Part shown: piece after piece, positions 1,302-59,284 of the stretch
Numbering within the stretch: the first letter of the stretch is position 1
Layout of the letters: each line of letters opens with the position of its first letter
Assembly: GCA_020632235.1 (NCBI GenBank)
Contig: JACKFY010000002.1
Location: 163,954 to 227,953, forward strand
DNA: 64,000 bases
Direction: 5' to 3'
Origin: Pseudomonadales bacterium
GTDB taxonomy: Bacteria > Patescibacteriota > Microgenomatia > UBA1400 > PJMF01
Position numbers and translations under genes: made by a program
The notes under the pieces: model-generated
The model's database searches: none
Told to the model about the DNA's origin: nothing
The model's input: the letters and a program-made list of their open reading frames with translations, nothing else

Positions 1302-1376
1302 GCGGACCATAGTTTAATGGTAGAACAGAGGTCTCCAACCCCCCGATGCTGTAATCGGGGACGATTCCGGAGACAC
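1302..1376 (+). repeat. tRNA-Trp 5'-half-like fragment (acceptor, D-arm and anticodon loop TCTCCAA) fused to a CCCCGAT-N6-ATCGGGG hairpin.
   Basis: ATAGTTTAATGGTAGAACAGAGGTCTCCAA matches a canonical bacterial tRNA-Trp 5' half. No matching anticodon-stem 3' strand or T-arm follows; instead the hairpin 1341-1360 and GGAGAC, which pairs with GTCTCC. Confidence 0.5.
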
Positions 1377-1449: not shown

Positions 1450-1458
1450 CATAGTCTC

Positions 1459-1500
1459 CAATCCCGACGTTATAGTCGGGACGAATCCTGGTGAGCCCAC
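1459..1500 (+). repeat. Third tRNA-Trp-derived fragment: TCTCCAA plus hairpin TCCCGAC-N6-GTCGGGA plus AATCCTGGTGAGCC (T-arm 3' strand and acceptor 3' strand).
   Basis: Direct similarity to segments of the intact tRNA-Trp at 1379-1449. Confidence 0.45.
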
Positions 1501-1816: not shown

Positions 1817-2205
1817 AAATCTTGCTTGATACTCAGGTTTTTATTTGGCTAGTAAATGATGATCCTAGATTAGGAGCGCAAGCCAAAAAGGTAGTTGTTT
1901 CCACACAAAACCAGGTGTACATCAGTTTTTTATCTTTGTTTGAGATGGCAATCAAAGCTGCAATTGGCAAATTGAGTTTTGACCCTAGCATCATGAATGA
2001 TCTTGAAAGTATGGGAATAGAGTTGGTGCCGGGCGACTCTGCAAGTCTGTCTCAATACCAGGTGTTTAATGAGGAAAACAAAGATCCATTCGATAATTTT
2101 TTAGTGGCAGTAGCAAAAACACGTGACTATGTGTTCTTGACAAGTGACCGTTCAATCTTATCAGCTGATGCGAGCGGAGTGAGTATTATGGATGCTACGG
2201 TATAA
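1813..2205 (+). CDS. vapC: PIN-domain toxin (VapC-like).
   Basis: LLDTQVFIWL N-terminal PIN signature with conserved acidic residues; coupled to the antitoxin. Confidence 0.7.
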   Translation: MKILLDTQVFIWLVNDDPRLGAQAKKVVVSTQNQVYISFLSLFEMAIKAAIGKLSFDPSIMNDLESMGIELVPGDSASLSQYQVFNEENKDPFDNFLVAVAKTRDYVFLTSDRSILSADASGVSIMDATV

Positions 2206-2262
2206 CGGTAGCATGAGGGTCTCCAACCCCCCGATGTTGCAATCGGGACGAGTTTTGGCAGG
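2204..2262 (+). repeat. Second tRNA-Trp fragment (D-loop and anticodon loop, AACGGTAGCAT-GAGGGTCTCCAA) fused to a CCCGAT-N6-ATCGGG hairpin. It starts at the vapC stop codon.
   Basis: Near-identical to the D-loop and anticodon loop of the tRNA at 1379-1449, followed by the same hairpin type as at 1341-1360. Confidence 0.45.
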
Positions 2263-3748: not shown

Positions 3749-3761
3749 ACTTGTCTGTCAC

Positions 3762-3880
3762 ACCGACCCCCGATGTGCATCGGGACTGGAGAAATCCCCA
3801 ACACGTCGGGGGAATGCCACACGCCTTCCTCCCTTTCGTAAGGGGAGAGATCAAGCGATAGCGTGATAGAGGGGTTTTTT
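3762..3880. repeat. Composite hairpin mosaic element in a convergent intergenic region: CCCCCGATG-tg-CATCGGG hairpin, TCCCTTTCGTAAGGGGA hairpin, and the 30-mer ATCAAGCGATAGCGTGATAGAGGGGTTTTTT.
   Basis: Modules recur at 59285-59372 and 60403-60489. The 30-mer is near-identical at 60459-60489. Confidence 0.7.
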
Positions 3881-3906
3881 TCTCTCTTCTCCAGGGAGAG
3901 TAGTCT

Positions 3907-5754
3907 CTACAGCAGCAGCAATAGCGCAGCACCTAGTGCAAGCGTAGCTACACCAATCTTGGCAATCAGTGAGAAGTTAAACGCACCAGTCTGGGGTAGT
4001 TCTTCAGGAAGGACTGGTTGGACAGGAGCAGGTGTCTGATAGACAGGAGTGGTAGGTGGAGCAACCGGAGCTCTGCAGTTGGTCTGAGTAGGATAGGCAC
4101 CCATTCTGCACGCACCCTCGTGACAGATGTAGCCACTACCTATGGTCTGACACTGCGCATCGGCACTACACGTGCTGTTACAGGCATACGTACCCTGTGC
4201 TGTTTGACACGTCGTACTACTTGGATTATTACTCATTCGACACACTCCTGTGCTGTTACCATTCTGTTTGTAGCAGACATAGCTATTGTTTGCCTCCTGA
4301 CACTGTGAGTCACTTGTACAGCTGCTGTTACAGGTATAAGTGATAAGTGAGGGAGAAGGGCTGACACTTGGACTCACTGAAGGGCTCACGCTTGGACTGG
4401 GAGAAACCGAAGCACTTGGAGACGGACTCACGCTGGGAGGAAGTGAGCAGGTAGCACTTGTGGGGTTAGCCTTCAGCCTACATCTGTACTCTTCTCTTTT
4501 TTCCATGGCAGGATCATCAACCAAGGTGCAGGCGTAGCCTGAACCCAATGCTTGTGAACAGGTATCCTCACCTGTTGCCGTTGAGAGGGGAATACAGGTG
4601 CTGTTACACACCGGTGCTTGTGGAGAAGGACTCGGAGAGGTTGTTTCAGGACAATACCCCAAGTTAAAGTTAATATCACTGACAGGAATATCTCGTTGAC
4701 AACTACCATCAGCGATCTCTCTGATAATAGTGTTGTTATTGATAAGAGAGATACCCTCAACATTACTATCAGGACAGGTAATGCCATTGTCTCTCCCTGT
4801 ATAGGCATCAGTAGCTGATGCATCAGGGAACTGCGCATTACCAATAGGTCGAATAGCACCGATGATTTGAGATGCCGGAGCAGTAATACTCCATCTACCA
4901 GTACGATCAGTCACTGCTCTCCACAGATCATCGTTTCTCTGACCAATGGTGATGTTTGATTGATATACCTTCTCACCGGTTGATTTCACCACACAGTAGG
5001 CGCGACCAGAGAGGGTGATGTCTTCTTGGGGCGTAGTACATCCAGGAGTATTTCCTTGATAGTAGACAACACCGTCATAGTTGAAGCAAGAGCCACCTGG
5101 ATCAACAAAATCCTCAGGTTGGCAATCAGCCCTATCTGATACATCGACTTGGATAGTTTGATTGCACGCAGTAGTAATAGTATCTAAATTTACAGATCGG
5201 AGCGGGCCCTGCATGTTAGAGAGACATGCATCATGTCTTCCTTCACAGGTAAAGACGTAAATATAACGATCAGGTTGAGACTCGACGCTACACGTCCTAT
5301 CCATAACCGTACAGATGGGCTTACCATTATTTCTATCCCGAGCGCATGGAGTCATAGAAGGGTCTCCATTAAACTGAGCAGGGAGCGGATCAGCATCTGG
5401 ACCGCTATAGAGTTGTGGAGGACTAAAGGTTCCAGGAACGCCACAAATGGCTAGAAATCCCTCATTTCTTACGATATCGGTAGTTCCAGGATCAATAGCT
5501 GCTTGATTTCTTAAGTCTTGATTTTGTTTTATTAAAAATACTCCTGCTAGAGAACCAACCGTGAGGACAAGGAGGAGTAATCCTGCAAGCACAAAAGAGG
5601 TGATGTTTCTTTTTGACTTCGTACTTCCTAAAGAAGGTGCTGTTTCCACTGGTGCGCGCGCACTCTCTGTAGCAGCACTATCAGTTGTACCTGGTTGTTG
5701 GAAGTCTGGAGGATGAGTGTTGATCATTGTGTTGTTCGCACCACTACAGTACAC
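3907..5754 (-). CDS. LPXTG-anchored cell-surface protein: N-terminal TM/signal anchor, repeated Cys-rich modules, SPSV low-complexity linker, C-terminal LPQTG plus hydrophobic tail.
   Basis: LPQTG followed by a hydrophobic segment at the C-terminus. Repeated C..C....C..C modules. (S-P-S-V)n linker. Confidence 0.7.
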   Translation of the reverse strand: MYCSGANNTMINTHPPDFQQPGTTDSAATESARAPVETAPSLGSTKSKRNITSFVLAGLLLLVLTVGSLAGVFLIKQNQDLRNQAAIDPGTTDIVRNEGFLAICGVPGTFSPPQLYSGPDADPLPAQFNGDPSMTPCARDRNNGKPICTVMDRTCSVESQPDRYIYVFTCEGRHDACLSNMQGPLRSVNLDTITTACNQTIQVDVSDRADCQPEDFVDPGGSCFNYDGVVYYQGNTPGCTTPQEDITLSGRAYCVVKSTGEKVYQSNITIGQRNDDLWRAVTDRTGRWSITAPASQIIGAIRPIGNAQFPDASATDAYTGRDNGITCPDSNVEGISLINNNTIIREIADGSCQRDIPVSDINFNLGYCPETTSPSPSPQAPVCNSTCIPLSTATGEDTCSQALGSGYACTLVDDPAMEKREEYRCRLKANPTSATCSLPPSVSPSPSASVSPSPSVSPSVSPSVSPSPSLITYTCNSSCTSDSQCQEANNSYVCYKQNGNSTGVCRMSNNPSSTTCQTAQGTYACNSTCSADAQCQTIGSGYICHEGACRMGAYPTQTNCRAPVAPPTTPVYQTPAPVQPVLPEELPQTGAFNFSLIAKIGVATLALGAALLLLL

Positions 5755-14779: not shown

Positions 14780-14795
14780 TGGTTGATCTTAGCTC

Positions 14796-14826
14796 TTGAT
14801 AAATTTAGAGAGAGAGAGAGGATAAT
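14796..14826 (+). promoter_or_regulatory. Putative promoter: TTGATA, 19-nt spacer containing (AG)7 (14807-14820), then GATAAT.
   Basis: Near-identical core to the promoter at 60511-60540. Confidence 0.4.
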
Positions 14827-14917
14827 GAGCTCTACTATGGGCAGAGAAGGACTACGTCAAACTATAGAGGGAATCAAAATTGAACATTCAAGGCCACCTC
14901 AAAAATAGGATGGACTG

Positions 14918-17895: not shown

Positions 17896-19756
17896 AGTGC
17901 GTACGTTTATACCAATTGGAGTGCTAGCGGCAGTGATGTGCGCTACGACGGTGCTACGACTCTTTGATGTCCAGATAATCAGAGGTGAGCAGTTTGCACA
18001 CTTAGCAGAGCAAAATAGAGTGTTTACGGCTCCTGTTCCAGCAGAGCGAGGTGTGTTTTTTGACAGGTATGGTGATTTTTTGGTGTACAATTCTCCTGAA
18101 TACTTTCTCCTAGATAACCCAACTCAAGCATATAGTCAGGTAACACCAGTCAGTCGTGATCAGGCGTTGGCGGTGATGGCTACCGATAGTGCTCGGGTTT
18201 CATATAAGCCGTCACGCGTTTACACCTTTCCGACGGTCCTCTCGCACGTCGTAGGATGGGCTTCCAGCGTGACGGCAGAAGAGTTACAGCAAAACCCCAG
18301 CCTCTCTGTCCGCAGCGTTGTTGGTAAAACTGGTCTTGAACGCTTTTTTGAACGTAATCTGCAGGGTCAAGAAGGCTCTCGTCAGTACGAGGTGAATGCA
18401 CTTGGCCAGCACGAGCGCCTGCTTGCTACTACTCTTGGTAGCCCAGGTCAGTCGCTCACTACCACAATTGACCCCTATCTTTCAACGATGCTCGCCCGCT
18501 CCTTAGGAGAACAAAAAGGAGCGGCAGTGGTGTTTGATGCGGCCACTGGCGCAGTGCTTGCATTGGTTAGTACGCCCGGGTTTGATGCAAATCTGTTTAG
18601 TCACACTCCATTGGATATGGCAGAGAAGCAGCAACGCGCCCAGGCTTTGCAGAGTGTCGTGCGTGACGAGCGAAACCCGATGTTTAACCGGGCGGTGGGT
18701 GGGGCGTATCCACCTGGTTCGGTATTCAAGCTAGTTACCGCTGCCACCGGACTTGAAAATGGATCGTTTAATACCCAAACCAGTGTAATAGATACTGGTG
18801 TCTTGGAGGTGGGGCAGTACAGCTTTGCCAACTGGTTTTATACCCAGTATGGCGGTACTGATGGCGAGGTCAGCGTAGTCAGGGCACTAGCGCGCAGCAA
18901 TGATATCTTTTTTTACAAAGCAGCAGAGTGGATCGGGCCAGACGGACTAGCCCAGGGAGCACGTCTGCTCGGCTTGGGTGCGCCTACAGGCATCGAGTTG
19001 CTGGGTGAGAGTGCAGGGCTTGTGCCAGACCCTCAGTGGAAAGAAGAGGTAGTTGGTGAAAAGTGGTTTTTGGGCAATACCTATCACTTTGGAATAGGGC
19101 AGGCAGACTTACTGGTGACTCCGCTGCAAGTGGCTCAGTACACGCAAGTATTTGCCAACCAAGGCTTGTTGTGCCACCCGCACCTCATACAGTACGAAGA
19201 CGCTCAGTCTACGTGTAGCGAGGTTGGTTTATCAAGCGAAACAATAGACACAGTACTTGAAGGCATGATAGATGCATGTAGTGATGGTGGTACTGCCTAT
19301 CCCTTTTTCCCCATCAATGCAGCGGTTGAGGCTAGCGGGAGTGCTCGTGAGCGCATTCGCTCTGGTGCGGTTGCCTGCAAAACAGGTACGGCAGAGTTTG
19401 GCGGCGTTGACGAGAATGGCTATCGCAGCACGCATGGTTGGTTTACTGCCATACTTGATACAAGACCTCTTCTTTCTCAGACCACAGCACCTGTCCAGGC
19501 ACTACGTCCTTCTGCAGTTACCGAGGTTTCTAGTTCTGCCGAGCTCTATACTGCATGGAGAGAAAAGATAGACAGGGCTGCACTGCCTGAAAAGCTAGTG
19601 ATGGTGGTGTTGGTTGAGAGTGACGAAGAGCAGCCATATAAAGAGGGCTCTCGCGATGCAGCCCCTGTAGTCAAAGATATTGTTGACTGGATGGGCGGCA
19701 CGATGCAAGTAGCAACAGACTCGGCAGAAGTAGCGCCCGCAGGACAGGCAGAATGA
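17888..19756 (+). CDS. mrdA: Penicillin-binding protein 2 (peptidoglycan D,D-transpeptidase).
   Basis: SVFK (SxxK), SND (SxN) and KTGT motifs; N-terminal TM anchor. Confidence 0.85.
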   Translation: MNKVRTFIPIGVLAAVMCATTVLRLFDVQIIRGEQFAHLAEQNRVFTAPVPAERGVFFDRYGDFLVYNSPEYFLLDNPTQAYSQVTPVSRDQALAVMATDSARVSYKPSRVYTFPTVLSHVVGWASSVTAEELQQNPSLSVRSVVGKTGLERFFERNLQGQEGSRQYEVNALGQHERLLATTLGSPGQSLTTTIDPYLSTMLARSLGEQKGAAVVFDAATGAVLALVSTPGFDANLFSHTPLDMAEKQQRAQALQSVVRDERNPMFNRAVGGAYPPGSVFKLVTAATGLENGSFNTQTSVIDTGVLEVGQYSFANWFYTQYGGTDGEVSVVRALARSNDIFFYKAAEWIGPDGLAQGARLLGLGAPTGIELLGESAGLVPDPQWKEEVVGEKWFLGNTYHFGIGQADLLVTPLQVAQYTQVFANQGLLCHPHLIQYEDAQSTCSEVGLSSETIDTVLEGMIDACSDGGTAYPFFPINAAVEASGSARERIRSGAVACKTGTAEFGGVDENGYRSTHGWFTAILDTRPLLSQTTAPVQALRPSAVTEVSSSAELYTAWREKIDRAALPEKLVMVVLVESDEEQPYKEGSRDAAPVVKDIVDWMGGTMQVATDSAEVAPAGQAE

Positions 19757-21237
19757 GTAAGCGGGTGGTGATTCTTGGTGGTGGGTTTGGCGCTCTTGCC
19801 GCCGCACCGTTGCTAGCTCGGGATGGATACCACGTGACTGTTGTAGAAAAAAACGAGCAACTGGGTGGTAGAGCGTCGGTCTTGAAAAAAGATGGTTTTG
19901 TCTTTGATATGGGGCCTTCGTGGTACTTGATGCCTGAAGTGTTTGATCGGTACTTTGCGCAGTTTGGAAAGAAGCCAAGCGACTATTACGATCTTGTGCC
20001 GCTTGAGCCCCAGTACAGAGCATACTTTGATGACGGCACACTCGTTGATATTCCCCGAGACATAGACGAAACAGCCGCTGTCTTTGACAGGCTTGAGCCA
20101 GGCTCAGGCAAGATGCTACAAAAGTACCTCACCACTGCCCAAGAGTACTACCGGCTCGCAATGGACCACTTTTTGTACACGCCTATGCAGTCCTACCGAG
20201 ACTTGTGTGTGCTCCCGCTTCGTGCGTATCCATCGCTATTGCAGTCGTTGCGCAGCATGCACTCTGCCATCACTAGCACGTTTCGTAGTACACAGATCTA
20301 CCAACTCCTCACCTATCCTATGATTTTTTTAGGGTGTTCGCCAACGAATGCGCCGTCATTATTTCGACTTATGAACTACGTTGATTTTAAACAGAACGTT
20401 TACTATCCAATGGGTGGTATGAGTGCGGTGGTTTCAGCGCTTGTTGCTTTGGGCAAGGAATACGGAGTAGAGTACCGTGTGAACACACCTGTAGAGACCA
20501 TCGTAGTGCGTGATGGGAAAGTGTCAAAAGTAGTAGCCAGAGATCAAGAGTATCGTGCTGATCTCTATGTTTCGAACGCTTCGTATCCTCACACAGAGTC
20601 ACTGTTTAGCGACCAGAGTGCCCGCCGCTACCCTACTAAGTACTGGCAAAAAAAAGTGATCACTCCGTCTGCTTTTTTACTCTATTTAGGCTTAGACACC
20701 GCTATGCCAGACTATTTACATCACACGTTTGTTTTCTCGGATGCATTTGAGCAGCATTTTGAGCATATTTTTGGTGATCCAGCATGGCCTCAAAACCCCT
20801 CCATCTACGTGAACGCCCCGAGTAAAACCGATAGTACGTTGGCTCCCGCTGGCTCAGAAGTCATGACGGTACTCGTGCCTATTGCTCCTGGACTCACGGC
20901 ATCTTTGGCAGAAAAAAAGCGGTATGCAGAGCATATTGTGCAGCTGCTTGAACAAAAAGTAGGAGCCCCCATTCGCCCGCACATCGTGACGCAGCAGCTG
21001 TTTTCAGTCGAAGATTTTTCTCAAAGGTATAATGCGTACGAAGGAAATGCATTTGGCGATTTGTCAAATACACTACTACAAAGTATGCTGTTTCGTCCGC
21101 CTTTCTCGCACGCAAAGCTGGACAATTTATTTTTTGTAGGTACCAATACCCAACCTGGGGTTGGCGTGCCGCCAGCATTGATCTCTGCGCAATTACTTCA
21201 GGCAGAGCTACATAAAATGTACAGAACGAACACATGA
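19753..21237 (+). CDS. crtI: Phytoene desaturase (CrtI family FAD oxidoreductase).
   Basis: VVILGGGFGALA...E.N...GGRA dinucleotide fold; C-terminal ..NAYEGNAFG.....FRP.....NL.FVGT.TQPG.GVP CrtI signature. Confidence 0.8.
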   Translation: MSKRVVILGGGFGALAAAPLLARDGYHVTVVEKNEQLGGRASVLKKDGFVFDMGPSWYLMPEVFDRYFAQFGKKPSDYYDLVPLEPQYRAYFDDGTLVDIPRDIDETAAVFDRLEPGSGKMLQKYLTTAQEYYRLAMDHFLYTPMQSYRDLCVLPLRAYPSLLQSLRSMHSAITSTFRSTQIYQLLTYPMIFLGCSPTNAPSLFRLMNYVDFKQNVYYPMGGMSAVVSALVALGKEYGVEYRVNTPVETIVVRDGKVSKVVARDQEYRADLYVSNASYPHTESLFSDQSARRYPTKYWQKKVITPSAFLLYLGLDTAMPDYLHHTFVFSDAFEQHFEHIFGDPAWPQNPSIYVNAPSKTDSTLAPAGSEVMTVLVPIAPGLTASLAEKKRYAEHIVQLLEQKVGAPIRPHIVTQQLFSVEDFSQRYNAYEGNAFGDLSNTLLQSMLFRPPFSHAKLDNLFFVGTNTQPGVGVPPALISAQLLQAELHKMYRTNT

Positions 21238-21920
21238 CATATACCTACGCACTTTTGCTACTCAGTATTGTTTTTTTTCCGCTTTTGCTTGCGCACACTC
21301 GTCAATTTTCGTTTGCTGGCGAGTGGCGTCGTTTTGCTTGGGTGTGTATCGTTCTGTTGTTATTTTTTATTCCATGGGATGTCGCAGCGCACAGTATCGG
21401 CCACTGGTGGTTTAATCCAGAGTACACTCTGCCGTACACAGCCATAGGCTTACCTCTGGAAGAGTGGGGTTTTTTTACTGCAGTTTCGTTTAGCATGCTG
21501 TTTTTGTATGTGCAGTTGCGTCGTTTGTCTGGCGCGGGGGCAGCGTATCCACCAGTCTCAAGTAGGCAGTACTGTTTGTACTACACGGCAGTATTGGCGC
21601 TTGCTGTCATCCTTCCTGCTTTGGCTTTGCTGCATGTGTCCTACACCGCTCTCGTTGTCTTGGCTGCTGTGTGTACACTGTGTTTGTGGCGGGTGTTTGG
21701 CACTGCCGATAGAGCGCTGTCTGCGCATCTGATGCTTGGGTTTGTGTTCTTTTTTATCTATAACTACGCCTTAACCTCTCTTCCTGTGGTGTTGTACGGC
21801 AGCCCATGGATTCTTGGAGTGAGAATGCTCACCATTCCTGTCGAAGATAGTTTGTACAATGGGGTGCTGCTCATACTGATAGTCTTGACGTATCAAATGG
21901 AGTGCAGAAAGAAGGTGTGA
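21234..21920 (+). CDS. Lycopene cyclase domain (CrtYcd-type) membrane protein.
   Basis: Seven TM helices with a GLPLEEWGFF (PxEE) motif typical of heterodimeric-type lycopene cyclases; sits between crtI and crtB. Confidence 0.55.
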   Translation: MTYTYALLLLSIVFFPLLLAHTRQFSFAGEWRRFAWVCIVLLLFFIPWDVAAHSIGHWWFNPEYTLPYTAIGLPLEEWGFFTAVSFSMLFLYVQLRRLSGAGAAYPPVSSRQYCLYYTAVLALAVILPALALLHVSYTALVVLAAVCTLCLWRVFGTADRALSAHLMLGFVFFFIYNYALTSLPVVLYGSPWILGVRMLTIPVEDSLYNGVLLILIVLTYQMECRKKV

Positions 21921-22762
21921 GTACCACAAAACAAAGTGTATTTAGAAAGGGTAGCACAACCTATTTTTATAGTAGTTTGCTATTTGAAAAGGACGATTGG
22001 CAGAAGGTCGCAACACTGTATGAGTTTGTACGCAGAGTAGATGACTGTGTCGATGTTGTAGGTGGGCAAGTTGACACCGATCGCTTACCACAGTTGTATG
22101 AAGAGTGGCGCGGGGTGGTGGGCGGGGGCGAAAGCCGTTATCGATGGGTGAATGATTTTCACACACTCTCAGAGCAGGTTGGTTTTGAGCACTCATGGAT
22201 AGAGGCGTTTTTTCACTCAATGTTTTTGGATCTACACAATACACCGTGTCACACACTCAAAGACACACAGCGCTATATGTACGGCTCCGCCGAGGTTATA
22301 GGGCTCATGATGAACAGGATTGTAGGCATTCATGGGCGTACTGCAGATATGTGCGCCCAGTTGCAGGGTAGGGCAATGCAGTACATCAATTTTTTGCGTG
22401 ATATTGACGAAGATTGCGGGCTTGGGCGGCAGTACATTCCCATCGAAATCTTGAAAAAACATGGCCTTTCTTCTCTGAAAAAAGATGTTGCTTTGCGCCA
22501 GAGTGAGGCGTTTTACTCTCTCATGCGGGCCGAGATCAATCGTTATCAAGAGTGGCAAGTACAGGCAGAGCGTGGGTATCGGTACTTGCCGTTTCGGGCT
22601 CGGCTGGCTGTGAGTACTGCAGCAAGGCTGTATAATTGGACGGCGCGCGTCATACAGCATGATCCGTCTATTGTGTATCGTCTCAAAGTAAAACCAAGAA
22701 AACGACGAGTCGTGATGACGATGCTGCAGGCTTTATACGCATCGAAAAGGGTGAATGTATGA
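21902..22762 (+). CDS. crtB: Phytoene/squalene synthase family (CrtB).
   Basis: YEFVRRVDDCVD and FLRDIDED aspartate-rich motifs. Confidence 0.8.
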   Translation: MQKEGVSTTKQSVFRKGSTTYFYSSLLFEKDDWQKVATLYEFVRRVDDCVDVVGGQVDTDRLPQLYEEWRGVVGGGESRYRWVNDFHTLSEQVGFEHSWIEAFFHSMFLDLHNTPCHTLKDTQRYMYGSAEVIGLMMNRIVGIHGRTADMCAQLQGRAMQYINFLRDIDEDCGLGRQYIPIEILKKHGLSSLKKDVALRQSEAFYSLMRAEINRYQEWQVQAERGYRYLPFRARLAVSTAARLYNWTARVIQHDPSIVYRLKVKPRKRRVVMTMLQALYASKRVNV

Positions 22763-23820
22763 AACACATTATTCGTCACAAAGAGCAAATACAAGAGGTG
22801 TTACTGAGCCTGCTTGAGCAAGCGCAGGAGGAATACTCCTACCTTGAGTGGGGAGATCACGTCTTTGAGTTACTGCGCAACTTTGTAGTGGGGGGCAAGA
22901 TGTATCGCGGCTCTCTGCTGGTTTTTACCTATGAAATGCTGCATAACTCGCAGGTTAGTCAAGATCACCCTATCTATACGTTGGCAGCTGCCCTCGAGCT
23001 GTACGCCTCAACCCTCCTCGTCCAAGACGACATTATGGACGGCGATAGTTTGCGCAGAGGGAAGGCGACTCTTCACGTACAAATTGAGGATGACTACGCC
23101 GGCAGCACGTCTTCCCAGAAGGCCCGTTTTGGTACAGGAATGGCAATGATGTGTGCCACAATTGGCCAATTTTTGGTCCAAAAAATAATTACCGAGCTTG
23201 ATTTCTCGCAAGAAACAAAAGTACAGCTGTTCCATGCTATGAGCACGCTTTCAATCCCTACGGGCCTAGCCCAGATGAAAGATGTAGCCACCTCGATGAA
23301 CAAAGATGCGCTGACCAAGTCAGAAATACTTGGTGTCTATACGTACAAAACAGCGTACTACACCATGTGTTTGCCGTTTGCATTGGCGACTACTGCAGCA
23401 CAGAAAGACACACACCCAGCACATAACATCCTGCAAGACTTGGGTAGTTCACTTGGAGTTTTGTATCAAATTTCCGATGATGCCATTAGTTTATTTAGCA
23501 CATCTGCCCAAGCAGGTAAGACCCGCGGCAACGATGTCGTTGAGGGCAAACAGACGTTGTATTACTGGTATACTGCAGACTTACTTTCAGGCAAAGCGAA
23601 AGAGCGGTTTCTTTCTTTGTATGGTCACGCGCAATCAGAGAGTGAAGTGGCAGAAACAATAGCGCTGATAGAACAGAGTGGAGCTCGCTCTAGAGTGGAG
23701 GCAGACACACAGCGCTCTGTTGATATGTGTGCTCACCAGCTCGCGCAGCTACCAGTTGCAGAGAGATGGAAGGAAGAGCTGCGTAGTTTTATGCAGGTCA
23801 TAGTGCACAGAAAGAGATAG
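22759..23820 (+). CDS. Polyprenyl synthetase (GGPP synthase-like trans-prenyltransferase).
   Basis: LVQDDIMDGD (FARM) and YQISDDAISLF (SARM) motifs. Confidence 0.8.
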   Translation: MKHIIRHKEQIQEVLLSLLEQAQEEYSYLEWGDHVFELLRNFVVGGKMYRGSLLVFTYEMLHNSQVSQDHPIYTLAAALELYASTLLVQDDIMDGDSLRRGKATLHVQIEDDYAGSTSSQKARFGTGMAMMCATIGQFLVQKIITELDFSQETKVQLFHAMSTLSIPTGLAQMKDVATSMNKDALTKSEILGVYTYKTAYYTMCLPFALATTAAQKDTHPAHNILQDLGSSLGVLYQISDDAISLFSTSAQAGKTRGNDVVEGKQTLYYWYTADLLSGKAKERFLSLYGHAQSESEVAETIALIEQSGARSRVEADTQRSVDMCAHQLAQLPVAERWKEELRSFMQVIVHRKR

Positions 23821-23821
23821 C

Positions 23822-24625
23822 ATGAGTGATACATCTTTAATCGCCATCAAGCTTGGCGGATCAGTCTTTAGTGATAAAAAACGAGCCTTTAGTTTAAACA
23901 CCGAGGTGCTCGAGTTACTGACCGAGCAAATTGCCGAGGCATGTGTAAAGGGTGTCCGACTAATAATAGGTCATGGTGCTGGCTCATTTGGGCACACGGT
24001 GGCTCACGAATACCAAACTCACAAAGGCATGATCAATGCGCAGAGCAAAAAAGGCTTTGTAGAGGTGTCCTACACTATGGTCAAGCTCAACATGCTGATC
24101 TTGGAGTACCTACGCAACAAAGGCCTCCCTGTCATCTCGCTCAACCCGCAATCAATCATGACCACCAACAACTTCCAGCTAGAGTATCTCAGCACCACCA
24201 CGCTGGAACACAGCATTGGCCACGGCATGATACCCGTGGTGTATGGGGCGCAGTTATTTGACACAGCAAAAGGGTGTAGTATTTTTTCAACAGAAAATGT
24301 ACTCGCAGCGCTGGGGTTAGCACTCAAGAAAAAAGCAATATGCATCTCAAAGATCATTTTTGTGGGTCAAACTGACGGTGTGTATGATAGCAATGGCGCC
24401 ACTATTCCAGAAATTACGAAAGATACTATCGCTCAATTTCGCTCTGCTCTAAAAGGGTCTGATGGAGTCGATGTCACTGGCGGCATGCTACACAAGGTGG
24501 AGAAAGCACTTTCGCTTGCAGACCAGGGTATTGCGAGTCAAATCATAAACGGCACTAGAAGAGGAGAGCTCCTTCGCGCTCTTCTTGAAAAAGAGGTGTG
24601 CGGCACGCATATAGGAGCAGCATGA
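23822..24625 (+). CDS. Isopentenyl phosphate kinase (amino-acid-kinase fold).
   Basis: IKLGGSVFSDK, HGAGSFGH and VDVTGGM motifs matching archaeal-type IPK. Confidence 0.65.
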   Translation: MSDTSLIAIKLGGSVFSDKKRAFSLNTEVLELLTEQIAEACVKGVRLIIGHGAGSFGHTVAHEYQTHKGMINAQSKKGFVEVSYTMVKLNMLILEYLRNKGLPVISLNPQSIMTTNNFQLEYLSTTTLEHSIGHGMIPVVYGAQLFDTAKGCSIFSTENVLAALGLALKKKAICISKIIFVGQTDGVYDSNGATIPEITKDTIAQFRSALKGSDGVDVTGGMLHKVEKALSLADQGIASQIINGTRRGELLRALLEKEVCGTHIGAA

Positions 24626-25302
24626 ATGATGCACTCCAGCATGTAGCGATCATTATGGATGGCAATAGGCGTTGGGCGCGCTCGCGGGGTTTGCCAGGGC
24701 TTAAGGGCCATGAGTACGTGGTAGAAGAGCGTCTGGAAGAACTGTGTGATGCGTGTATTGAACAAGGCATTGCCTACGTGACGATGTGGGCGTTTAGCAC
24801 TGAAAACTGGTCACGGGATGACGCTGAGATAGAAGGGTTGATGGCGTTATTTAGGCGTGTGTGTGAGGAAGAGTTTGAAGCACTGCACAACAAAGGCGTG
24901 CAGATTCGCACTATCGGTAATCTAGATGCCTTTCCACCAGACATCACCCAGAGTGTTACAGCTTGGGTAGAAAAAACAAAAAAGAATAGTGCAATCACCG
25001 TTATTTTTGCACTCAATTATGGCGGGCGAGACGAGCTGGTTCGCGCATTTGAGAAGAGTAACGCCCAAGATCTAAGCCCCTCGGAAGCAAGCATCGCGCA
25101 GTCACTCGATACCGCTGGTATTCCTGACCCTGAACTCATCATTCGGCCTGGTGGTCAGCAACGCTTGTCTGGGTTTTTGCCGTGGCAGAGTGTCTATAGT
25201 GAGCTGTACTTCACCGATGTCTTGATGCCAGATTTTGATAGATACGAACTGAAAAAAGCGCTTGCAGAGTACAGTAGGAGGAAGCGGACGTTTGGGGGGT
25301 AA
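24598..25302 (+). CDS. uppS: Undecaprenyl/di-trans,poly-cis-prenyl diphosphate synthase.
   Basis: MDGNRRWA motif and the UppS fold. Confidence 0.85.
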   Translation: MRHAYRSSMNDALQHVAIIMDGNRRWARSRGLPGLKGHEYVVEERLEELCDACIEQGIAYVTMWAFSTENWSRDDAEIEGLMALFRRVCEEEFEALHNKGVQIRTIGNLDAFPPDITQSVTAWVEKTKKNSAITVIFALNYGGRDELVRAFEKSNAQDLSPSEASIAQSLDTAGIPDPELIIRPGGQQRLSGFLPWQSVYSELYFTDVLMPDFDRYELKKALAEYSRRKRTFGG

Positions 25303-25305
25303 TGT

Positions 25306-25587
25306 TTACAACTGCAGTGTAATTTTTCTTTGGTTGTACTGGCGAATGAGGCTGGTGATGAGCGTTTGATAGGGGATGCCAGACTCAATTGACCTTGCCT
25401 TTAGTTTTTCTATGTCACTACTGGCTATGCGTAGGCTGATAGTACGGTCTTTTTTTGTATGACGTCGTGCTATGTTTTGGTAGCGTTGTATTTTTGCAGC
25501 ACCATCTTGTATAGGGTGGTATTTTCCATCTGTGTAGTCTTGAACGAGCTGTTTTTCCTGGGTAGTGAGTGGTGTGGTTTGTTTCAT
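25306..25587 (-). CDS. brnA: BrnA-like antitoxin (RHH/CopG-like). Internal ATG start chosen; the long ORF goes to 25722.
   Basis: C-terminal ..RTISLRIASSDIEKLKARSIESGIPYQTLITSLIRQY matches the BrnA family; immediately downstream of the BrnT gene. Confidence 0.5.
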   Translation of the reverse strand: MKQTTPLTTQEKQLVQDYTDGKYHPIQDGAAKIQRYQNIARRHTKKDRTISLRIASSDIEKLKARSIESGIPYQTLITSLIRQYNQRKITLQL

Positions 25588-25594
25588 GTGTTTT

Positions 25595-25876
25595 TCAAGT
25601 ATTTTTTTGTTGCTTTCTACTGGGGATGATAGTTTTGAGAAAAATTTGGGTGTTGTCCTCAACGAACGGCACGAGGTAGGCGTAGTCATGCATTTCCACG
25701 ATAAAAATATTTTGTTTTTCATATTTTTCTTGGTTGGAGTGTTCTTCTACAGCCAGCAACTTTCCTTCTGCTATTGCCGATACAATCTCTTCAAACGAGA
25801 TCTTTCTTTCTGCTTGGAGTTTTTGGTTTTTAGCCAAGTTCCAACTATAGTACTTCACTCGCATATTGTAGTCCAA
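25595..25876 (-). CDS. brnT: BrnT-family (DUF497) ribonuclease toxin.
   Basis: ..W...KN..KH.ISFEE...... pattern; about 93 aa. Confidence 0.6.
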   Translation of the reverse strand: MDYNMRVKYYSWNLAKNQKLQAERKISFEEIVSAIAEGKLLAVEEHSNQEKYEKQNIFIVEMHDYAYLVPFVEDNTQIFLKTIIPSRKQQKNT

Positions 25877-33717: not shown

Positions 33718-33743
33718 TTTTTTTTCTCGTACACAACATAAAA

Positions 33744-33794
33744 CCCCTCACTTTCGCGCTTGGAGACAACCAGGCAGAAAAGTGAGGGGTTTTT
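33744..33794. terminator. Bidirectional Rho-independent terminator: 11-bp stem CCCCTCACTTT/AAAGTGAGGGG flanked by A-run and T-run.
   Basis: Perfect stem, TTTTT downstream on +, AAAA upstream. Lies between convergent mscL and the 121-aa gene. Confidence 0.7.
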
Positions 33795-35341: not shown

Positions 35342-35587
35342 ATGATGGTACGAACGCAGGTGTACATGCCGCCAGATCTTCACCAGCAAGCTTTGCAACA
35401 CGCCAATAGTAAAGGCGTTTCTCTATCTGCCGTTGTTCGGCAGGGGGTCACCCAGGTGATTCACCCCGGAAAACAGTCGGAACAAATGCAACCAAAACAA
35501 AAAACTATTTCATCGGTACTGCCAGTTTTGAACTCTGGTCGGGATCCTGGAGTTATCACCAGAGAAATGATCTATGACGGATTTTAG
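35342..35587 (+). CDS. Putative antitoxin (RHH-like) of a VapBC pair.
   Basis: Small basic/helical protein immediately upstream of, and overlapping, the PIN gene. Confidence 0.45.
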   Translation: MMVRTQVYMPPDLHQQALQHANSKGVSLSAVVRQGVTQVIHPGKQSEQMQPKQKTISSVLPVLNSGRDPGVITREMIYDGF

Positions 35588-36017
35588 TGTTGGGTGTGTG
35601 GATACAAATATTTTCATCTATGCATTTGATAATGCCTCTCGCTTTCATATACCATCTGTAAAGACTATTAATACATTATCTACGCTAGGCATAGTGATAA
35701 TGCCGCAGATACAACTAGAGATCTTTAGTGCACTTCATTATATCGAGCCGCTTTCTCAAAAAAGACTTGATCTTATTGATTCTATTCTTTGTCTTCCAAA
35801 AGTACAAAATGTGTATCCTCTAGAAACTACACACACTCGTGCTTTGCAAGAAGCCTTGAAAATTACTCAGTTAGGTAAAAGAAAAATCTTCGACTACTAT
35901 CTTGCCCAAACATTGGTGGATAATGGAGTAGAGGTGCTCTACACCCATAACACAGCAGATTTTTCCGCTTATGCTGAAAAACTGACCATCATCAACCCAC
36001 TCGAACAATCATGGTAA
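35574..36017 (+). CDS. vapC: PIN-domain toxin (VapC-like).
   Basis: VDTNIFIYAFD N-terminal PIN motif. Confidence 0.65.
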   Translation: MTDFSVGCVDTNIFIYAFDNASRFHIPSVKTINTLSTLGIVIMPQIQLEIFSALHYIEPLSQKRLDLIDSILCLPKVQNVYPLETTHTRALQEALKITQLGKRKIFDYYLAQTLVDNGVEVLYTHNTADFSAYAEKLTIINPLEQSW

Positions 36018-36454: not shown

Positions 36455-36645
36455 GTGCTCGAGGTTGGATGTTTAGATAGCTGGACTTTGGGTGCTAGAT
36501 TGTTGGCTTCGACCTACCTTGTTGACTTTGAACACTTTTTTTTCGCAAGGGAAGACATCCCGACATGTCAGGGTTAGAGAAATCCCTAATGCAGATTTTT
36601 TGACTATACTCGAAGTAATAAGCCGGGGTTACTCAGCGTTTTTAG

Positions 36646-36903
36646 CTAGTCTTTTTTTATTTCTTCTTGGTATTTAGCATATTTGTCTGGCTCGTCACTA
36701 GGCCAAGAAACCGTGGTGAAAACCATACCATGTTCGGCATCTTGCAAGTGGTCTTCCTCCATACGACCTGTCCCAAATCTAAATTGTAAACCCATCTCAG
36801 CTGCTACTTCCTCCATAATAAGAACATCTGCAATAGAGTGGTGGCCGCTTACATCGATCCTGACTTTTTTGGTTGTTGGTTCTATTTCTGCTTTTTCAGA
36901 CAT
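36646..36903 (-). CDS. Small hypothetical protein, paralog A (86 aa from the internal ATG; the ORF track extends to 36960 with a TTG).
   Basis: Paralogous to 43461-43718 (shared EEVAAEMGLQ/KEVAQEMGLR core). A conserved promoter lies upstream. Confidence 0.5.
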   Translation of the reverse strand: MSEKAEIEPTTKKVRIDVSGHHSIADVLIMEEVAAEMGLQFRFGTGRMEEDHLQDAEHGMVFTTVSWPSDEPDKYAKYQEEIKKD

Positions 36904-36935
36904 AAGAAAATTTTTATATCTTTTTACTAAGCCTA

Positions 36936-36960
36936 ATTTTCCTCTCTCTCTGAAAGTCAA
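36936..36960 (-). promoter_or_regulatory. Promoter of paralog A: -35 TTGACT, 13-nt spacer = ttc(AG)5, -10 GAAAAT. The spacer is too short.
   Basis: Aligned with the paralog B promoter, which has (AG)7 and a 17-nt spacer. Confidence 0.45.
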
Positions 36961-37045
36961 GTACTAAAATCCTATAACATCTAATAGCCTGCTAGAAAAT
37001 AGAATATTGGGTTTTGGGTTTTGGATGCTGGGGGCTGGTTTTTAT

Positions 37046-37169
37046 CCCCTCTTTTGAAAGAGGGGCTGCTGTCAGCTGACGGAAGGGGTGTTTTGTAAAA
37101 AAAGAGGGAACACAAACACCTCGCCCACTCATCCTTCGAATGAGGGATGCTCCTCTTAAAAAGAGGAGA
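37046..37169. repeat. Hairpin mosaic element: CCCCTCTT-ttga-AAGAGGGG plus GC-rich arms, CCACTCATCC..GAATGAGGG hairpin, CTCCTCTT-aaaa-AGAGGAG hairpin.
   Basis: Homologous modules at 43991-44118 and 60365-60400. Confidence 0.7.
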
Positions 37170-37308
37170 TTTAGTTCCGAACACACTATGTCTTCATTTT
37201 TGCCAAAACAAGCGGGTTTTGAGCACAGTTAGTATGTGTACAAAGCACAAGATGTAGTTTTTTCGGGTTGCGCGTACACAATATGTTGTGGTTTAGTGAT
37301 CAGCTGAT

Positions 37309-40035: not shown

Positions 40036-41421
40036 ATGCTGTCAAAAACAAAGCACAATCTGCCCCAGCCACCATCCTTGATCAAAACTATCGGCCCATC
40101 ATTTATCTTGGTTGGTTTGGCTTTGGGTAGTGGCGAGGTTATTCTGTGGCCGTACTTGATTAGCCACTACGGCCTTGGCCTGCTCTGGGGCGCAGTGCTT
40201 GGCGTCTCATTTCAGTATCTCCTTAATACAGAAATTATGCGCTACACCTTGTATTGGGGCGAGAGCGTGTTTGTGGGCTTTCGGCGATTGAGTGCGTGGC
40301 TGCCATGGTGGTTTGTTGTCTCAACGGTGATCCCGTGGTCGCTGCCGGGGTTTTCATCTGCCTCAGCCGAGATTTTTTCAACACTGTTTCCCGCTCTGCC
40401 AGTCGAGACAACTATGATCGGCATGTTGCTGTTTTGTGGCATTCTGCTTTCTGTAGGGAGTAGTGTTTATAAAACAATGGAGCGCCTCGAGAAAGGGGTG
40501 GTGATAGGTTCGCTTATTTTTATCTTCGTGCTCGTTTGTCTGTTTACGGGTCTCGCCGACTGGTCGCAGGCGGCGGTGGGGTTGGTGGGGGTGGGGGATG
40601 GGTGGTGGTTATTTCCAGAAACGATTGCTTTGATGAGCTTTTTGGCAGCATTTGCCTATGCGGGCGGTGGGGGGAACTTAAACTTTGCCCAGTCGTACTA
40701 TATCAAGGAAAAGGGGTTTGGCATGGGGGCGTACGCGCCAAAAATTGGCTCGATTACTTCTTCCTCGATGGACGAGCGACCATCACTACTGGGTCAAACA
40801 TTTCCCAAAACAAAACAGAACAAAGCCATGTGGCAACAGTGGTGGCAGCTGGTTACTACCGAGCACCGATTGGTATTTTGGGGCGGGGGCATTGTCTCGA
40901 TTGTGATGCTGTCGGTGTTGGCACACGCACTTGTCCCTGAGGGAGTGACGACCGAAGGGCTAGCGTTTCTCTATAGCGAGGCAGCCACTCTTGCTGTGGT
41001 TTCGCCCCTGTTGGGCAAAGTATTTCTCTTGAGTGTGGCTACTATGTTGTTCTCCACGCAGTTGATCGTGTTGGAGTCTACCTCTCGGATTATCTCGGAA
41101 AATATCTTGCTTATTCGCTCAAAAACAGGCAATACCTGGAGTCAGACCAAAGCGTTTTTTACTGCGCTGTGGGGGCAAATTACATTGGGAGTTATGATTA
41201 TTATTTCTGGGTTTCAAGAGCCGCACTTTTTACTCACCCTTGCAGCAGCACTCAATGCCGGCGCGATGATGGTAGCGTTTATCTTGATCTTTTTCTTGAA
41301 CAAAAAACAGCTTGAGCCCGAGTTTCAACCAGGAAAACTGCGCAGTATTGGGCTGGGCATCGCTACGTTATTTTTTATTTTCTTTGTCTGCATGACCATC
41401 TGGCAGGGTATTACTGGATGA
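40036..41421 (+). CDS. Polytopic membrane transporter, NRAMP-like divalent-metal transporter family (tentative).
   Basis: About 11 TM helices. N-terminal GPSFILVGLALGSGEV..WP resembles the NRAMP TM1 region, but the DPGN motif is absent. Confidence 0.4.
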   Translation: MLSKTKHNLPQPPSLIKTIGPSFILVGLALGSGEVILWPYLISHYGLGLLWGAVLGVSFQYLLNTEIMRYTLYWGESVFVGFRRLSAWLPWWFVVSTVIPWSLPGFSSASAEIFSTLFPALPVETTMIGMLLFCGILLSVGSSVYKTMERLEKGVVIGSLIFIFVLVCLFTGLADWSQAAVGLVGVGDGWWLFPETIALMSFLAAFAYAGGGGNLNFAQSYYIKEKGFGMGAYAPKIGSITSSSMDERPSLLGQTFPKTKQNKAMWQQWWQLVTTEHRLVFWGGGIVSIVMLSVLAHALVPEGVTTEGLAFLYSEAATLAVVSPLLGKVFLLSVATMLFSTQLIVLESTSRIISENILLIRSKTGNTWSQTKAFFTALWGQITLGVMIIISGFQEPHFLLTLAAALNAGAMMVAFILIFFLNKKQLEPEFQPGKLRSIGLGIATLFFIFFVCMTIWQGITG

Positions 41422-41735
41422 AGATAGTATTACTTGATTTTCTAGGTAGTACTTTGTACACTTATTCTGCAAGTATGCAGATGGTTACTACTGTTACTAC
41501 CAAAGGCCAGGTGGTTATCCCACAACACCTGCGTGATGCGTTGGGTCTGCACCCATCTCAAAAAGTGCTCTTTGACAGAAAGGGTGAGACTCTTGTGCTA
41601 AAAAAGGTGCCAACTGTCAAGACCATGAGAGGTTTTATTACCGCAAAAAAGAAGGTGTCCGCTCGAAACTTTGACGCGGCAATCAAACAAGCAGTGCTAA
41701 TAAAACATCATAAGAAACAACATGATAATTCTTGA
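41418..41735 (+). CDS. AbrB/MazE/SpoVT-family antitoxin.
   Basis: TTKGQVVIPQHLRDALGL swapped-hairpin motif. Confidence 0.6.
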   Translation: MKIVLLDFLGSTLYTYSASMQMVTTVTTKGQVVIPQHLRDALGLHPSQKVLFDRKGETLVLKKVPTVKTMRGFITAKKKVSARNFDAAIKQAVLIKHHKKQHDNS

Positions 41736-42093
41736 TACAAACGTACTCATTCGTTACTTTATAAACGATGATGTGGCGATAGCAAAGAAAGTTGAAGCAG
41801 TACTGCAAACAGCAGAGCACCTGCATATTCCAGCAGTAGTTTTTCCCGAAATAGAGTATGTGTTGCTGAAACTGTATGATTCCACCAGGGATGCTGTGGG
41901 CGAGGCGTTTTCTTTCTTGTGTTCTCTGTCAAATGTAAAGGTGGATCTGGTAGTGCAACAAGCAGTCGTGTTGTACAAAAAAACCAATCTAGATATGGCT
42001 GACTGCATTGTCGCGTGTAGCGGCAGGCAGGGTGATTTGATTGCTAGTCTGGACAGAGCCCTCGTGAACAACACCAATATGGAGGCGTACTAG
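41722..42093 (+). CDS. vapC: PIN-domain toxin (VapC-like).
   Basis: ILDTNVLIRYF motif. Confidence 0.7.
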   Translation: MIILDTNVLIRYFINDDVAIAKKVEAVLQTAEHLHIPAVVFPEIEYVLLKLYDSTRDAVGEAFSFLCSLSNVKVDLVVQQAVVLYKKTNLDMADCIVACSGRQGDLIASLDRALVNNTNMEAY

Positions 42094-43260: not shown

Positions 43261-43460
43261 AAACTAGGCTGTTGGCTTTGGGTGCTGGAGGCTGGTCACT
43301 TTGTCAACTCTGAACTCTTGCCCGAAATGCTACGCAAATGCGTTGCAGGCGAGTGTTTCAGAGTCTGCTTTGATTGTTTTAGCGTGATGATTAGCGAGCT
43401 CGTCCATACGCTTTTTGTTTATCAAACCTTTGGCGAACACTATGGAAGATGCCTGTCGAT

Positions 43461-43718
43461 CTAATTGCCGGTTCTTTTGATAGTGTTATCAACACGTTTC
43501 CAAAAATCCGTCAGTCCTTCTGGTCCCTGCCCAGATATTTCGACCCAACCTTTGCCAGGCTCAGGTTCGTGTAATGTGTTTGTTCCATCGTTGTATGGAG
43601 CCATTTCAGGAGTATCAAGTCTGAGTCCCATTTCTTGCGCAACTTCCTTCATAACTTCAATGTGTTCAAGTAGGTATTGTCCTCTCATAGGTTGGTTTTT
43701 TATAAATAACTCTTTCAT
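43461..43718 (-). CDS. Small hypothetical protein, paralog B (85 aa).
   Basis: Paralog of 36646-36903. Confidence 0.5.
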   Translation of the reverse strand: MKELFIKNQPMRGQYLLEHIEVMKEVAQEMGLRLDTPEMAPYNDGTNTLHEPEPGKGWVEISGQGPEGLTDFWKRVDNTIKRTGN

Positions 43719-43756
43719 AACATGCTTTCTTGTTTATTTTTTACACTTGTTTGGCT

Positions 43757-43785
43757 ATTTTCCTCTCTCTCTCTCTGAAAGTCAA
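43757..43785 (-). promoter_or_regulatory. Promoter of paralog B: -35 TTGACT, 17-nt spacer = ttc(AG)7, -10 GAAAAT.
   Basis: Sequence; optimal spacing, in contrast to paralog A. Confidence 0.45.
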
Positions 43786-44118: not shown

Positions 44119-44147
44119 CAGTAAGCAAGATATGCTACTATGAATAC

Positions 44148-59274: not shown

Positions 59275-59284
59275 GGCGAGGTGT

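Follow-up and report, generated by a model that had tools for sequence, protein, structure and literature searches.

What are the GC-rich hairpins that recur, in changing order and orientation, along the gene spacers of a small bacterial genome? The question is raised by a stretch of 64,000 nucleotides (nt) of contig JACKFY010000002.1 (assembly GCA_020632235.1, positions 163,954 to 227,953 of the forward strand), here called the window. A preliminary description of this stretch had noticed in it a mosaic palindromic family resembling REP/BIME or RPE-type elements, and this reading holds up. The copies form a true repeat family, 85-94% identical over 45-71 nt with unrelated flanks. We suggest, with a probability of roughly 0.65, that they form a lineage-specific, non-autonomous family of short, non-coding, modular palindromic repeats in a genome of the Patescibacteria, or candidate phyla radiation (CPR).

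The DNA analysed amounts to 76.3 kb, the window plus about 12 kb beyond it (the flanking stretches L003 and L005), of a genome of roughly 1 Mb. The window is bacterial, and its genes are the housekeeping set of Patescibacteria near the Pacebacteria/Microgenomates group; the nearest database relatives of its YchF and PrfA, at no more than 69% and 68% identity, respectively, are all metagenome-assembled genomes (MAGs) of Patescibacteria. A phage origin was rejected on this gene content and on a megablast search without a match. The GC content is 46%, lower than the approximately 50% first given for the genome, and the GC skew is positive throughout. The window is 100% identical to contig JAGQLT010000003.1 (MAG GCA_020429115.1) and 99.9-100% identical, over the covered parts, to Logan-run contigs (SRR12358675 and SRR12358676) and to several ENA assemblies. 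With the NCBI MAG, the two Logan runs and the ENA assemblies in agreement, the sequence is therefore no assembly artefact.

Hairpin modules and composite units

About eight hairpin modules are present, in each of which the 5' arm consists only of pyrimidines and the 3' arm only of purines. The stems of H1 to H5 are 6-10 bp long: CCCCTCTT/AAGAGGGG in H1, CCCCGATG/CATCGGGG in H2, TCCCTT/AAGGGA in H3, CCCTCAC/GTGAGGG in H4 and CTGGCT/AGCCAG in H5. Every module that had been listed from first sight of the sequence was recovered at the position given for it or within 9 nt of it; some coordinates (44041, 44063 and 60405) needed shifting by up to 9 nt. Exact copies of H1 (CCCCTCTT-N3/4-AAGAGGGG) lie at 37046, 44038, 44099, 52040 and 60365, and the variant reported at 37150, CTCCTCTT..AAGAGGAG, is there and is doubly compensated. 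H3 recurs at 3830-3846, 59351-59366 and 60413-60428 and has a variant form at 43992-44008; H4 is found at 44072-44095 and, as a variant, at 37126-37147. What had been called a shared 30-mer is a 31-mer, at 3850-3880 and 60459-60489, with 93.5% identity. H2 fared less uniformly: the exact copy at 59330 and a one-mismatch copy at 60431 stand, those at 1341, 2230 and 3767 are looser and differ in loop or register, and at 1467 the stem is another one, CCCGAC/GTCGGG. The copies at 1341, 1467 and 2230, moreover, are fused to fragments derived from tRNA-Trp and form a separate subfamily that is treated below. Purine arms such as AAGAGGGG, GGTGAGGG and AAGGGGA are similar to Shine-Dalgarno sequences, and pyrimidine arms to the anti-Shine-Dalgarno sequence, for example at 60365-60383, 44072-44095 and 3830-3846.

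That the modules are shuffled in order and orientation is seen both in alignments and in profile searches. The preliminary description has to be revised in one respect: the modules are pieces of larger composites of about 60-90 nt, in which fixed linkers (AT-H1-C..., GGGGTGTTTT, GATAGAGGGGTTTTTT) join one module to the next. Over 71 nt, 43995-44065 and 60356-60426 form arms with 90% complementarity. Two composites can be distinguished. Unit A reads AT-H1-C-(H5 CTGGCTnnnAGCCAG or H4 CCCTCAC..GTGAGGG)-GGGGTGTTTT(AnCAC)-(H3), and a profile hidden Markov model (HMM) finds seven copies of it in the 76.3 kb, at 60362+, 44060-, 44120-, 52062-, 37042+, 37172- and, beyond the window, L003 13455-. Unit B reads H3-H2-ACnGGGACATC...GATAGAGGGGTTTT, with a tail also written GATAGAGGGGTTTTTT, and has three copies, at 3822+, 59374- and 60409+. 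Units occur singly, as a direct tandem (A3-A2), tail to tail (A5/A6) or fused (A1+B3). The copies within the window are as follows.

60356-60430, plus strand: unit A copy A1, with AT-H1 (60365-60383), H5 (60384-60398), GGGGTGTTTTATCAC (H6) and H3 (60413-60428); nhmmer E=1e-19, fold z=-3.6.
60409-60494, plus strand: unit B copy B3, with H3, H2 (60431-60449) and ACAGGGACATCAAGCGCTAGTGTGATAGAGGGGTTTTTT; nhmmer E=3e-26.
59282-59374, minus strand: unit B copy B2, filling the spacer in which the trypsin/PDZ gene and prfA converge, co-oriented with prfA at the 3' end of that gene; nhmmer E=8e-25.
3822-3885, plus strand: unit B copy B1, consisting of H3 and the tail without H2, at the 3' end of an HD-domain gene in a convergent spacer; nhmmer E=6e-13.
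43975-44062, minus strand: unit A copy A2, with H1, H5, H6 and H3, then GACGTCCCGACTTCGG (module H7); nhmmer E=1e-19, inverted match of 71 nt at 90%.
44058-44122, minus strand: unit A copy A3, with H1, H4 and GGGTGTTTTATAT, in head-to-tail tandem with A2; nhmmer E=4e-12.
52003-52062, minus strand: unit A copy A4, in frame within ychF; nhmmer E=1e-13, 89% identical to 44014-44058.
37042-37100, plus strand: unit A copy A5, with H1 (loop of 4 nt), a second hairpin of variant form and GGGGTGTTTTGT; nhmmer E=2e-10, ends of Logan contigs at 37100/37103.
37104-37172, minus strand: unit A copy A6, with the H1 variant CTCCTCTT/AAGAGGAG and an H4 variant, forming with A5 a tail-to-tail inverted doublet that folds together; nhmmer E=3e-14.

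As judged from the alignments, these copies are homologous and not convergent. The stretch 43995-44058 matches 60426-60363 with 94% identity over 64 nt, 59316-59368 matches 60461-60412 with 89% over 53 nt, 44014-44058 matches 52016-52060 with 89% over 45 nt (the 45-nt matches range from 87 to 89%), and 44060-44118 matches L003 13390-13448 with 86% over 59 nt. Short GC-rich hairpins are common in spacers, and the corresponding loci of relatives have 0-7 unique hairpins each, which is all that speaks for the view that the copies arose by chance, as independent GC-rich terminators in an AT-rich background, or through the assembly of a chimeric MAG. H1 with a 3-nt loop, however, has four matches where 100 dinucleotide shuffles give 0.00; the strict form of H2 has two where 0.02 are expected, and the linker GGGGTGTTTT four where 0.21 are expected. 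The shared sequence also runs on through the linkers between the hairpins, the hairpins of relatives all differ from one another, and independent assemblies agree over the parts that they cover. The shuffles, the long matches and these assemblies refute such an origin, to which we give next to no credence.

Folded as RNA, the elements are chains of stem-loops, and the four most stable composites have z-scores of -3.0 to -5.7 against shuffles, the lowest belonging to the stretch that holds A2 and A3 (43980-44125, z=-5.7). H1, H3 and H2 all have compensated stem variants, such as CCCCTCTT/AAGAGGGG against CTCCTCTT/AAGAGGAG, so hairpin pairing has been preserved through compensatory changes. Compensation was judged by direct comparison of stems, as MAFFT put H3 copies of differing loop length in the wrong register.

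Copies in spacers and in coding sequence

The copies occupy all kinds of context: the 3' ends of genes, divergent promoter regions or 5' leaders and, in coding sequence, a loop on the surface of YchF and the region around the hisS stop codon. They had been described as intergenic, and the convergent and divergent spacers named for them are as stated, but the copy at 52040 lies in frame within ychF. Together the elements make up 1.4% of the window. Among window spacers of at least 40 nt, A or B units are found in 5 of the 19 where the coding strand switches and in none of the 21 co-directional ones (hypergeometric p=0.018). Three loci are in divergent regions (A1+B3, A2+A3 and A5+A6). A1 lies between the divergent genes prfA and ORF 60583, and probably inside the 5' leader of prfA, for which there is a promoter-like site at 60517-60490 with A1+B3 downstream of it.

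The copy in ychF has left its mark on the protein. YchF is 386 amino acids long here and 360 in most homologues, and protein alignment places the extra 26 residues just before the conserved IKPATVEFVDIAGL. The 45-nt core of A4 (52016-52060) encodes QNTPGSQPAPLSKRG in frame and so contributes to this insertion. The AlphaFold model gives residues 66-84 a predicted local distance difference test score below 50, in a loop between a helix (50-62) and a strand (94-99), and the insertion is thus predicted to be a disordered surface loop. The second coding case is the seventh copy of unit A, A7 (L003 13310-13455, minus strand), which overlaps the end of hisS. Since it lies 1.8 kb past the window, copies are not confined to the window, a restriction that would have told against a dispersed family in the preliminary description. 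The histidyl-tRNA synthetase (HisRS) here ends in ...QDKLATYPLFSRGASLVTKW and that of a relative in ...EKLKI; the tail is absent from the relative, and therefore H1 and H4 provide the last 14 codons and the stop. Both copies are in-frame insertions into protein genes with a tolerated peptide, and the likeness to RPEs is thereby closer than the preliminary description could tell.

It is in the light of these contexts that a functional reading has to be weighed, in which the hairpin arrays are functional RNA (intrinsic terminators, 3' stabilisers or transcriptional insulators) that is kept alike by selection and has spread only by local duplication, not selfish mobile DNA. B1, B2 and the hisS copy sit at the 3' end of the upstream gene in its own orientation and finish in a T run (G4T4-7), the combination of H5 and GGGGTGTTTT was flagged by a terminator scan, convergent and divergent spacers are favoured, and the stems show the compensatory changes described above. 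Other convergent spacers, too, bear unique hairpins of a similar style, for example at 33741-33792. In contrast, A1+B3, A2+A3 and A5+A6 stand between divergent genes, where nothing upstream is to be terminated, and termination within ychF would be lethal. The T run of unit B does not directly follow a strong stem, and terminator-like sites are not enriched, the first 20 kb having 16 where 18.8 are expected. Nor does function alone explain 94% identity over 64 nt at unrelated loci, or relatives that lack the elements entirely. We therefore consider this explanation unlikely, if still deserving of some weight.

Several further sequences are related to the units, or may be.

3758-3812, plus strand: a long hairpin that is a variant of H2, CCCCCGATGTG...CACGTCGGGGG enclosing GGGACTGGAGAAATCCCC, found by folding; its submodule GAGAAATCCC appears again at 36577.
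36540-36590, plus strand: a degenerate copy, with a decayed H3, then GACATCCCGAC (H7), then GGGTTAGAGAAATCCC; 18 nt at 94% to 43999-43982.
43319-43351, plus strand: one more module common to several loci, TGCCCGAAATGCTACGCAAATGCGTTGCAGGCG, between convergent genes; 88% over 33 nt to L003 13284-13316, which adjoins the extra copy of unit A.
33741-33792, no strand assigned: a possible relative, with an H4-type stem AAACCCCTCACTTT/AAAGTGAGGGGTTT enclosing a second hairpin (CTTGGAGACAACCAGG); fold of -30.8 kcal/mol.

A sensitive comparison of spacers with spacers also matched a G/T-rich block at 37020-37039 with 43277-43296. The last of the listed sequences lies in a convergent spacer with A and T runs on either side of the hairpin, and looks like a bidirectional terminator; its membership of the family is uncertain, the CCCCTCAC/GTGAGGGG stem being all that it has in common with the other members. 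Its type of outer stem and its nested architecture are those of P1 in the glmS ribozyme at 61806-62054. This ribozyme is 249 nt long, against 167 nt in the model; its nested P1 (CCCCCTCACCTTGT...ACAAGGTGAGGGGG) is very long, and TCCCTCACTTGCAAGTGAGGGA lies in an insertion of 63 nt. Stems of the H4 type are found in both parts, as though hairpins resembling the elements had been grafted onto peripheral loops of this RNA.

A promoter-like module, TTGAC(A/T)...(GA)5-7...G(A/G)(T/A)AAT, is present at 14790-14830 (plus strand), 36942-37015 (minus), 43767-43839 (minus) and 60495-60545 (plus), and all but one of these copies lie next to hairpin elements. Between two of them the identity is 85% over 74 nt, although the small open reading frames (ORFs) that follow are only about 38% identical. 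Variation in the length of the GA tract could alter promoter spacing.

Relatives, probable movement and the tRNA-Trp loci

Neither the modules nor HMM matches (E<=1) were found in 44 Patescibacteria loci around prfA and ychF, 760 kb in total; the hairpins that these loci do contain (0-7 in each) are all mutually different and not repeated. Related hairpin families in these relatives were therefore rejected, and the H2-like hairpins of two loci (L039 and L028) are apparently P1 of the glmS ribozyme, as judged only by the sequence around them. In L064, the closest relative found, the genes follow the order ychF-S6-SSB-S18-S41-PDZ-prfA-L31...hisS as they do here, and no element is present. Its convergent spacer between PDZ and prfA is 0 nt long, against 108 nt here, and these are wholly unit B2. 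The elements have thus been inserted in this lineage, and the sites of relatives are empty and shorter.

Wider searches agree with the earlier view that the family could not be placed among known ones. A composite pattern had no match in one scan of GTDB genomes and, in one scan of JGI metagenomes, a single chance match without the second hairpin; three patterns had no match in IMG/VR, and blastn found nothing in plasmid and phage collections. Rfam covariance models matched the element loci at chance level only (E of about 0.5 or higher), and over the whole window only tRNA-Trp (1379-1450) and the glmS ribozyme reach threshold. A known structured RNA was rejected as the identity of the elements, since these are the only two given by Rfam with both gathering and E-value thresholds. 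A chimeric six-frame peptide query and a 72-residue ORF spanning A3-A2 had no match in protein databases, and no recurrent conserved peptide was found. In the literature searched on Patescibacteria/CPR, we found no description of REP-, BOX- or RPE-like, REPIN/RAYT, MITE or palindromic repeats.

Because the copies are homologous, restricted to one lineage, placed without regard to context and inserted in frame into coding sequence, we regard them as dispersed repeats that have spread by insertion and not as dedicated regulatory sites. The elements would have spread as non-autonomous DNA, a movement that we infer. Hairpins folded in single-stranded DNA may be recognised by an enzyme supplied in trans, by analogy most plausibly a HUH/Y1 transposase of the RAYT or IS200/IS605 kind; another route would be hairpin-primed repair or gene conversion between hairpins. 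Elements may then persist where they are harmless, that is, in strand-switch spacers and not in co-directional spacers internal to operons. It is plausible that some copies, such as B1, B2 and the hisS copy, which are co-oriented with the upstream gene and carry a T run, have been co-opted as 3' hairpins, serving as weak terminators or RNA stabilisers.

Several observations weigh against this dispersed-repeat interpretation. Neither the ORFs of the window nor the genes tabulated for two short flanking stretches include a transposase, RAYT, integrase, recombinase or other candidate for a mobilising enzyme. There is no presence/absence polymorphism between samples, all of which are at least 99.9% identical, and mobility is therefore deduced solely from how this genome compares with distant relatives. 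Neither the ends of the elements nor any target-site duplications could be defined, and no empty site was available at the level of DNA. A replication-strand bias, as in IS200/IS605 and REP elements, was rejected, as the A units are oriented + - - - + - - under a uniformly positive GC skew. The DNA covered is about 76 kb of roughly 1 Mb, so the copy number for the genome is an extrapolation. Finally, two loci with A units, 36455-37308 and 43261-44147, flank weakly paralogous small ORFs, and an old segmental duplication could explain part of the sharing at these two loci; however, these flanking ORFs are only about 38% identical whereas the repeats are 85-94% identical. The small ORFs of 85 residues beside the elements at 37 kb and 44 kb were considered as the cognate protein and rejected: they have no Pfam match, are weak paralogues and are too small for a transposase. 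In favour of a multi-copy family, independent short-read contigs end inside elements, at 37100/37103, 44078 and 60464, as expected for repeats longer than the assembler k-mer, which implies more copies elsewhere.

The subfamily linked to tRNA-Trp raises a different possibility. The only tRNA that Rfam and ARAGORN report here is that at 1379-1450, and this intact tRNA-Trp(CCA) lies amid three partial copies (1296-2262), each joined at GGTCTCCAA in the anticodon loop to an H2-type hairpin.

1308-1375, plus strand: a tRNA-Trp-like 5' half (D arm to GGTCTCCAA) with the H2-type hairpin CCCCCCGATGCTGTAATCGGGGACG, from repeat comparison and folding.
1451-1500, plus strand: GTCTCCAA, the hairpin TCCCGACGTTATAGTCGGGACG and a second tRNA-Trp 3' end (direct repeat AATCCTGGTGAGCC), from sequence, folding and motif matches.
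2196-2250, plus strand: a third tRNA-Trp-like 5' half with an H2-type hairpin, 93% over 30 nt to 1330-1359.

The second and third of these bracket a Phd/PIN toxin-antitoxin cassette (1553-2205) that adjoins the intact tRNA-Trp, and the 3' end of the tRNA forms a 14-nt direct repeat. The fragments look like scars of recombination, att sites or insertion. The hairpins in general might be sites, att- or attC-like, or scars left by a site-specific recombinase with small cassettes as its cargo, toxin-antitoxin modules for example; the clearest instance would be the tRNA-Trp locus. The three hairpin-fused tRNA fragments, the bracketed cassette with its direct repeat and the unusual richness of the window in toxin-antitoxin genes are in keeping with this. 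However, the window contains no integrase or recombinase gene, the cassettes at 41418-42093, 50694-51758 and 53018-53520 are not flanked by modules, units A and B bracket no genes, and the insertions in coding sequence are not cassette boundaries. As an account of the family, we find it improbable.

Equally doubtful, in our opinion, is a more radical proposal: a hairpin-recognising system of DNA mobility or recombination specific to Patescibacteria and with no known enzyme, of which the elements would be the visible part. Hairpins would be inserted as single-stranded DNA and shuffled, would carry promoter modules with them (TTGAC-(GA)n-GATAAT by three loci) and would be exonised into essential genes, and the tRNA-Trp form would represent attC-like junctions that capture toxin-antitoxin cassettes.

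The window holds toxin-antitoxin modules (PIN, PhdYeFM, ParE, MazE, BrnT/CopG) at 1553-2205, 25306-25864, 35574-36017, 41418-42093, 46320-46727, 50694-51758 and 53018-53520. At least seven modules in 64 kb, among housekeeping genes, is a very high density for a genome of probably about 1 Mb. Elsewhere in the window, the gene at 3907-5754 (minus strand) encodes a protein of 615 residues without a Pfam match, Cys-rich and with long Ser/Pro/Val repeats (SPSPSASVSPSPSVSPSVSPSV), which is probably a surface protein; a Logan contig apparently starts within it, at about 4479 as deduced from the record coordinates. Directly 3' of mreBC-PBP2, this CPR genome has a carotenoid/isoprenoid cluster (19753-25302), comprising an amine oxidase/phytoene desaturase-like protein, a lycopene cyclase, a squalene/phytoene synthase, a polyprenyl synthase and a prenyltransferase.

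Likeness to known repeat families

By their form the elements come nearest to REP/BIME mosaics and to BOX, by their behaviour to RPE. Like the REP, BIME and REPIN sequences of Enterobacteria and Pseudomonas, which are mobilised by RAYT, they are short, GC-rich, imperfect palindromes in spacers, assembled into mosaics of direct and inverted copies with conserved linkers, and frequently located at the 3' ends of genes and where genes converge. As in REP-RAYT systems, whose imperfect palindromes are of 20-40 nt, a short palindrome is present in multiple copies, those of unit A numbering seven and those of unit B three in 76 kb. The inverted doublet A5/A6 resembles a REPIN, whereas A3/A2 is a direct tandem and others are single. 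The mosaic structure and conserved linkers of BIMEs have their counterpart here (GGGGTGTTTT, AT...C), but the orientation does not strictly alternate. Where REP systems have one or two REP types, several hairpin types are chained here; the host belongs to the Patescibacteria, and two copies of unit A overlap coding sequence. The GTAG found at the 5' end of REP palindromes flanks no module; every copy of H1 has (A/G)T before it and C after it. Because there is neither GTAG nor a RAYT in the available sequence, membership of the REP-RAYT group is not supported.

RPEs are palindromic repeats of a reduced genome that lie in frame in protein genes, to which they add a peptide in a surface loop without destroying the protein (PMC10969869). 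The elements described here are likewise found in frame in essential genes of a reduced genome, ychF and the C-terminal end of hisS. RPEs, however, are about 100-150 bp long, in contrast to modular units of 60-90 nt that are mostly intergenic; the likeness drawn here is one of behaviour, and since the host is a member of the Patescibacteria and not Rickettsia, the elements are not RPEs by lineage. Pneumococcal BOX elements are modular (boxA-boxB(n)-boxC) with stable stem-loops, a design also seen in units A and B, which string together stem-loops that can replace one another. SPRITE, a repeat like a rho-independent terminator, has the look of a mobile terminator, and some units here end in T runs at the 3' ends of genes, where termination is only predicted. 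BOX and SPRITE both differ from the present elements in module set and host, and are likened to them by description.

Miniature transposable elements with inverted repeats (MITEs) such as Correia/NEMIS and ERIC are, like the elements here, small, non-autonomous, multi-copy and hairpin-folding. MITEs may be located in 5' leaders, may contain or neighbour promoters and at times are fused to ORFs (PMC10969869). The present elements are a string of local palindromes and not one long pair of terminal inverted repeats; the only terminal repeat is a 7-nt match, CCCCTCT/AGAGGGG, at the ends of the A1+B3 composite, and the window contains no parent insertion sequence.

The feature is thus of an ordinary kind, dispersed palindromic mosaic repeats, in an unusual host and with a notable RPE-like property. 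Because contigs break at the elements, they are a practical cause of MAG fragmentation, and they could serve as a marker for strain typing. If the cognate enzyme were found, hairpin-directed transposition would be extended to the CPR, and if a hairpin-recognising system of a new type should prove real, an integron-like or REPIN-like system would have been independently invented in an ultra-small genome.

CPR/Patescibacteria genomes are about 1 Mb in size and gene-dense, and are generally regarded as poor in mobile DNA. The proliferation of a hairpin family in such a genome parallels that of RPEs in Rickettsia, another reduced genome. The elements lengthen spacers that measure 0 nt in a relative, sit in the probable leader of prfA and add peptides to YchF and HisRS. 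They present an opportunity to examine how repeats, whether selfish or domesticated, last in a genome under strong streamlining.

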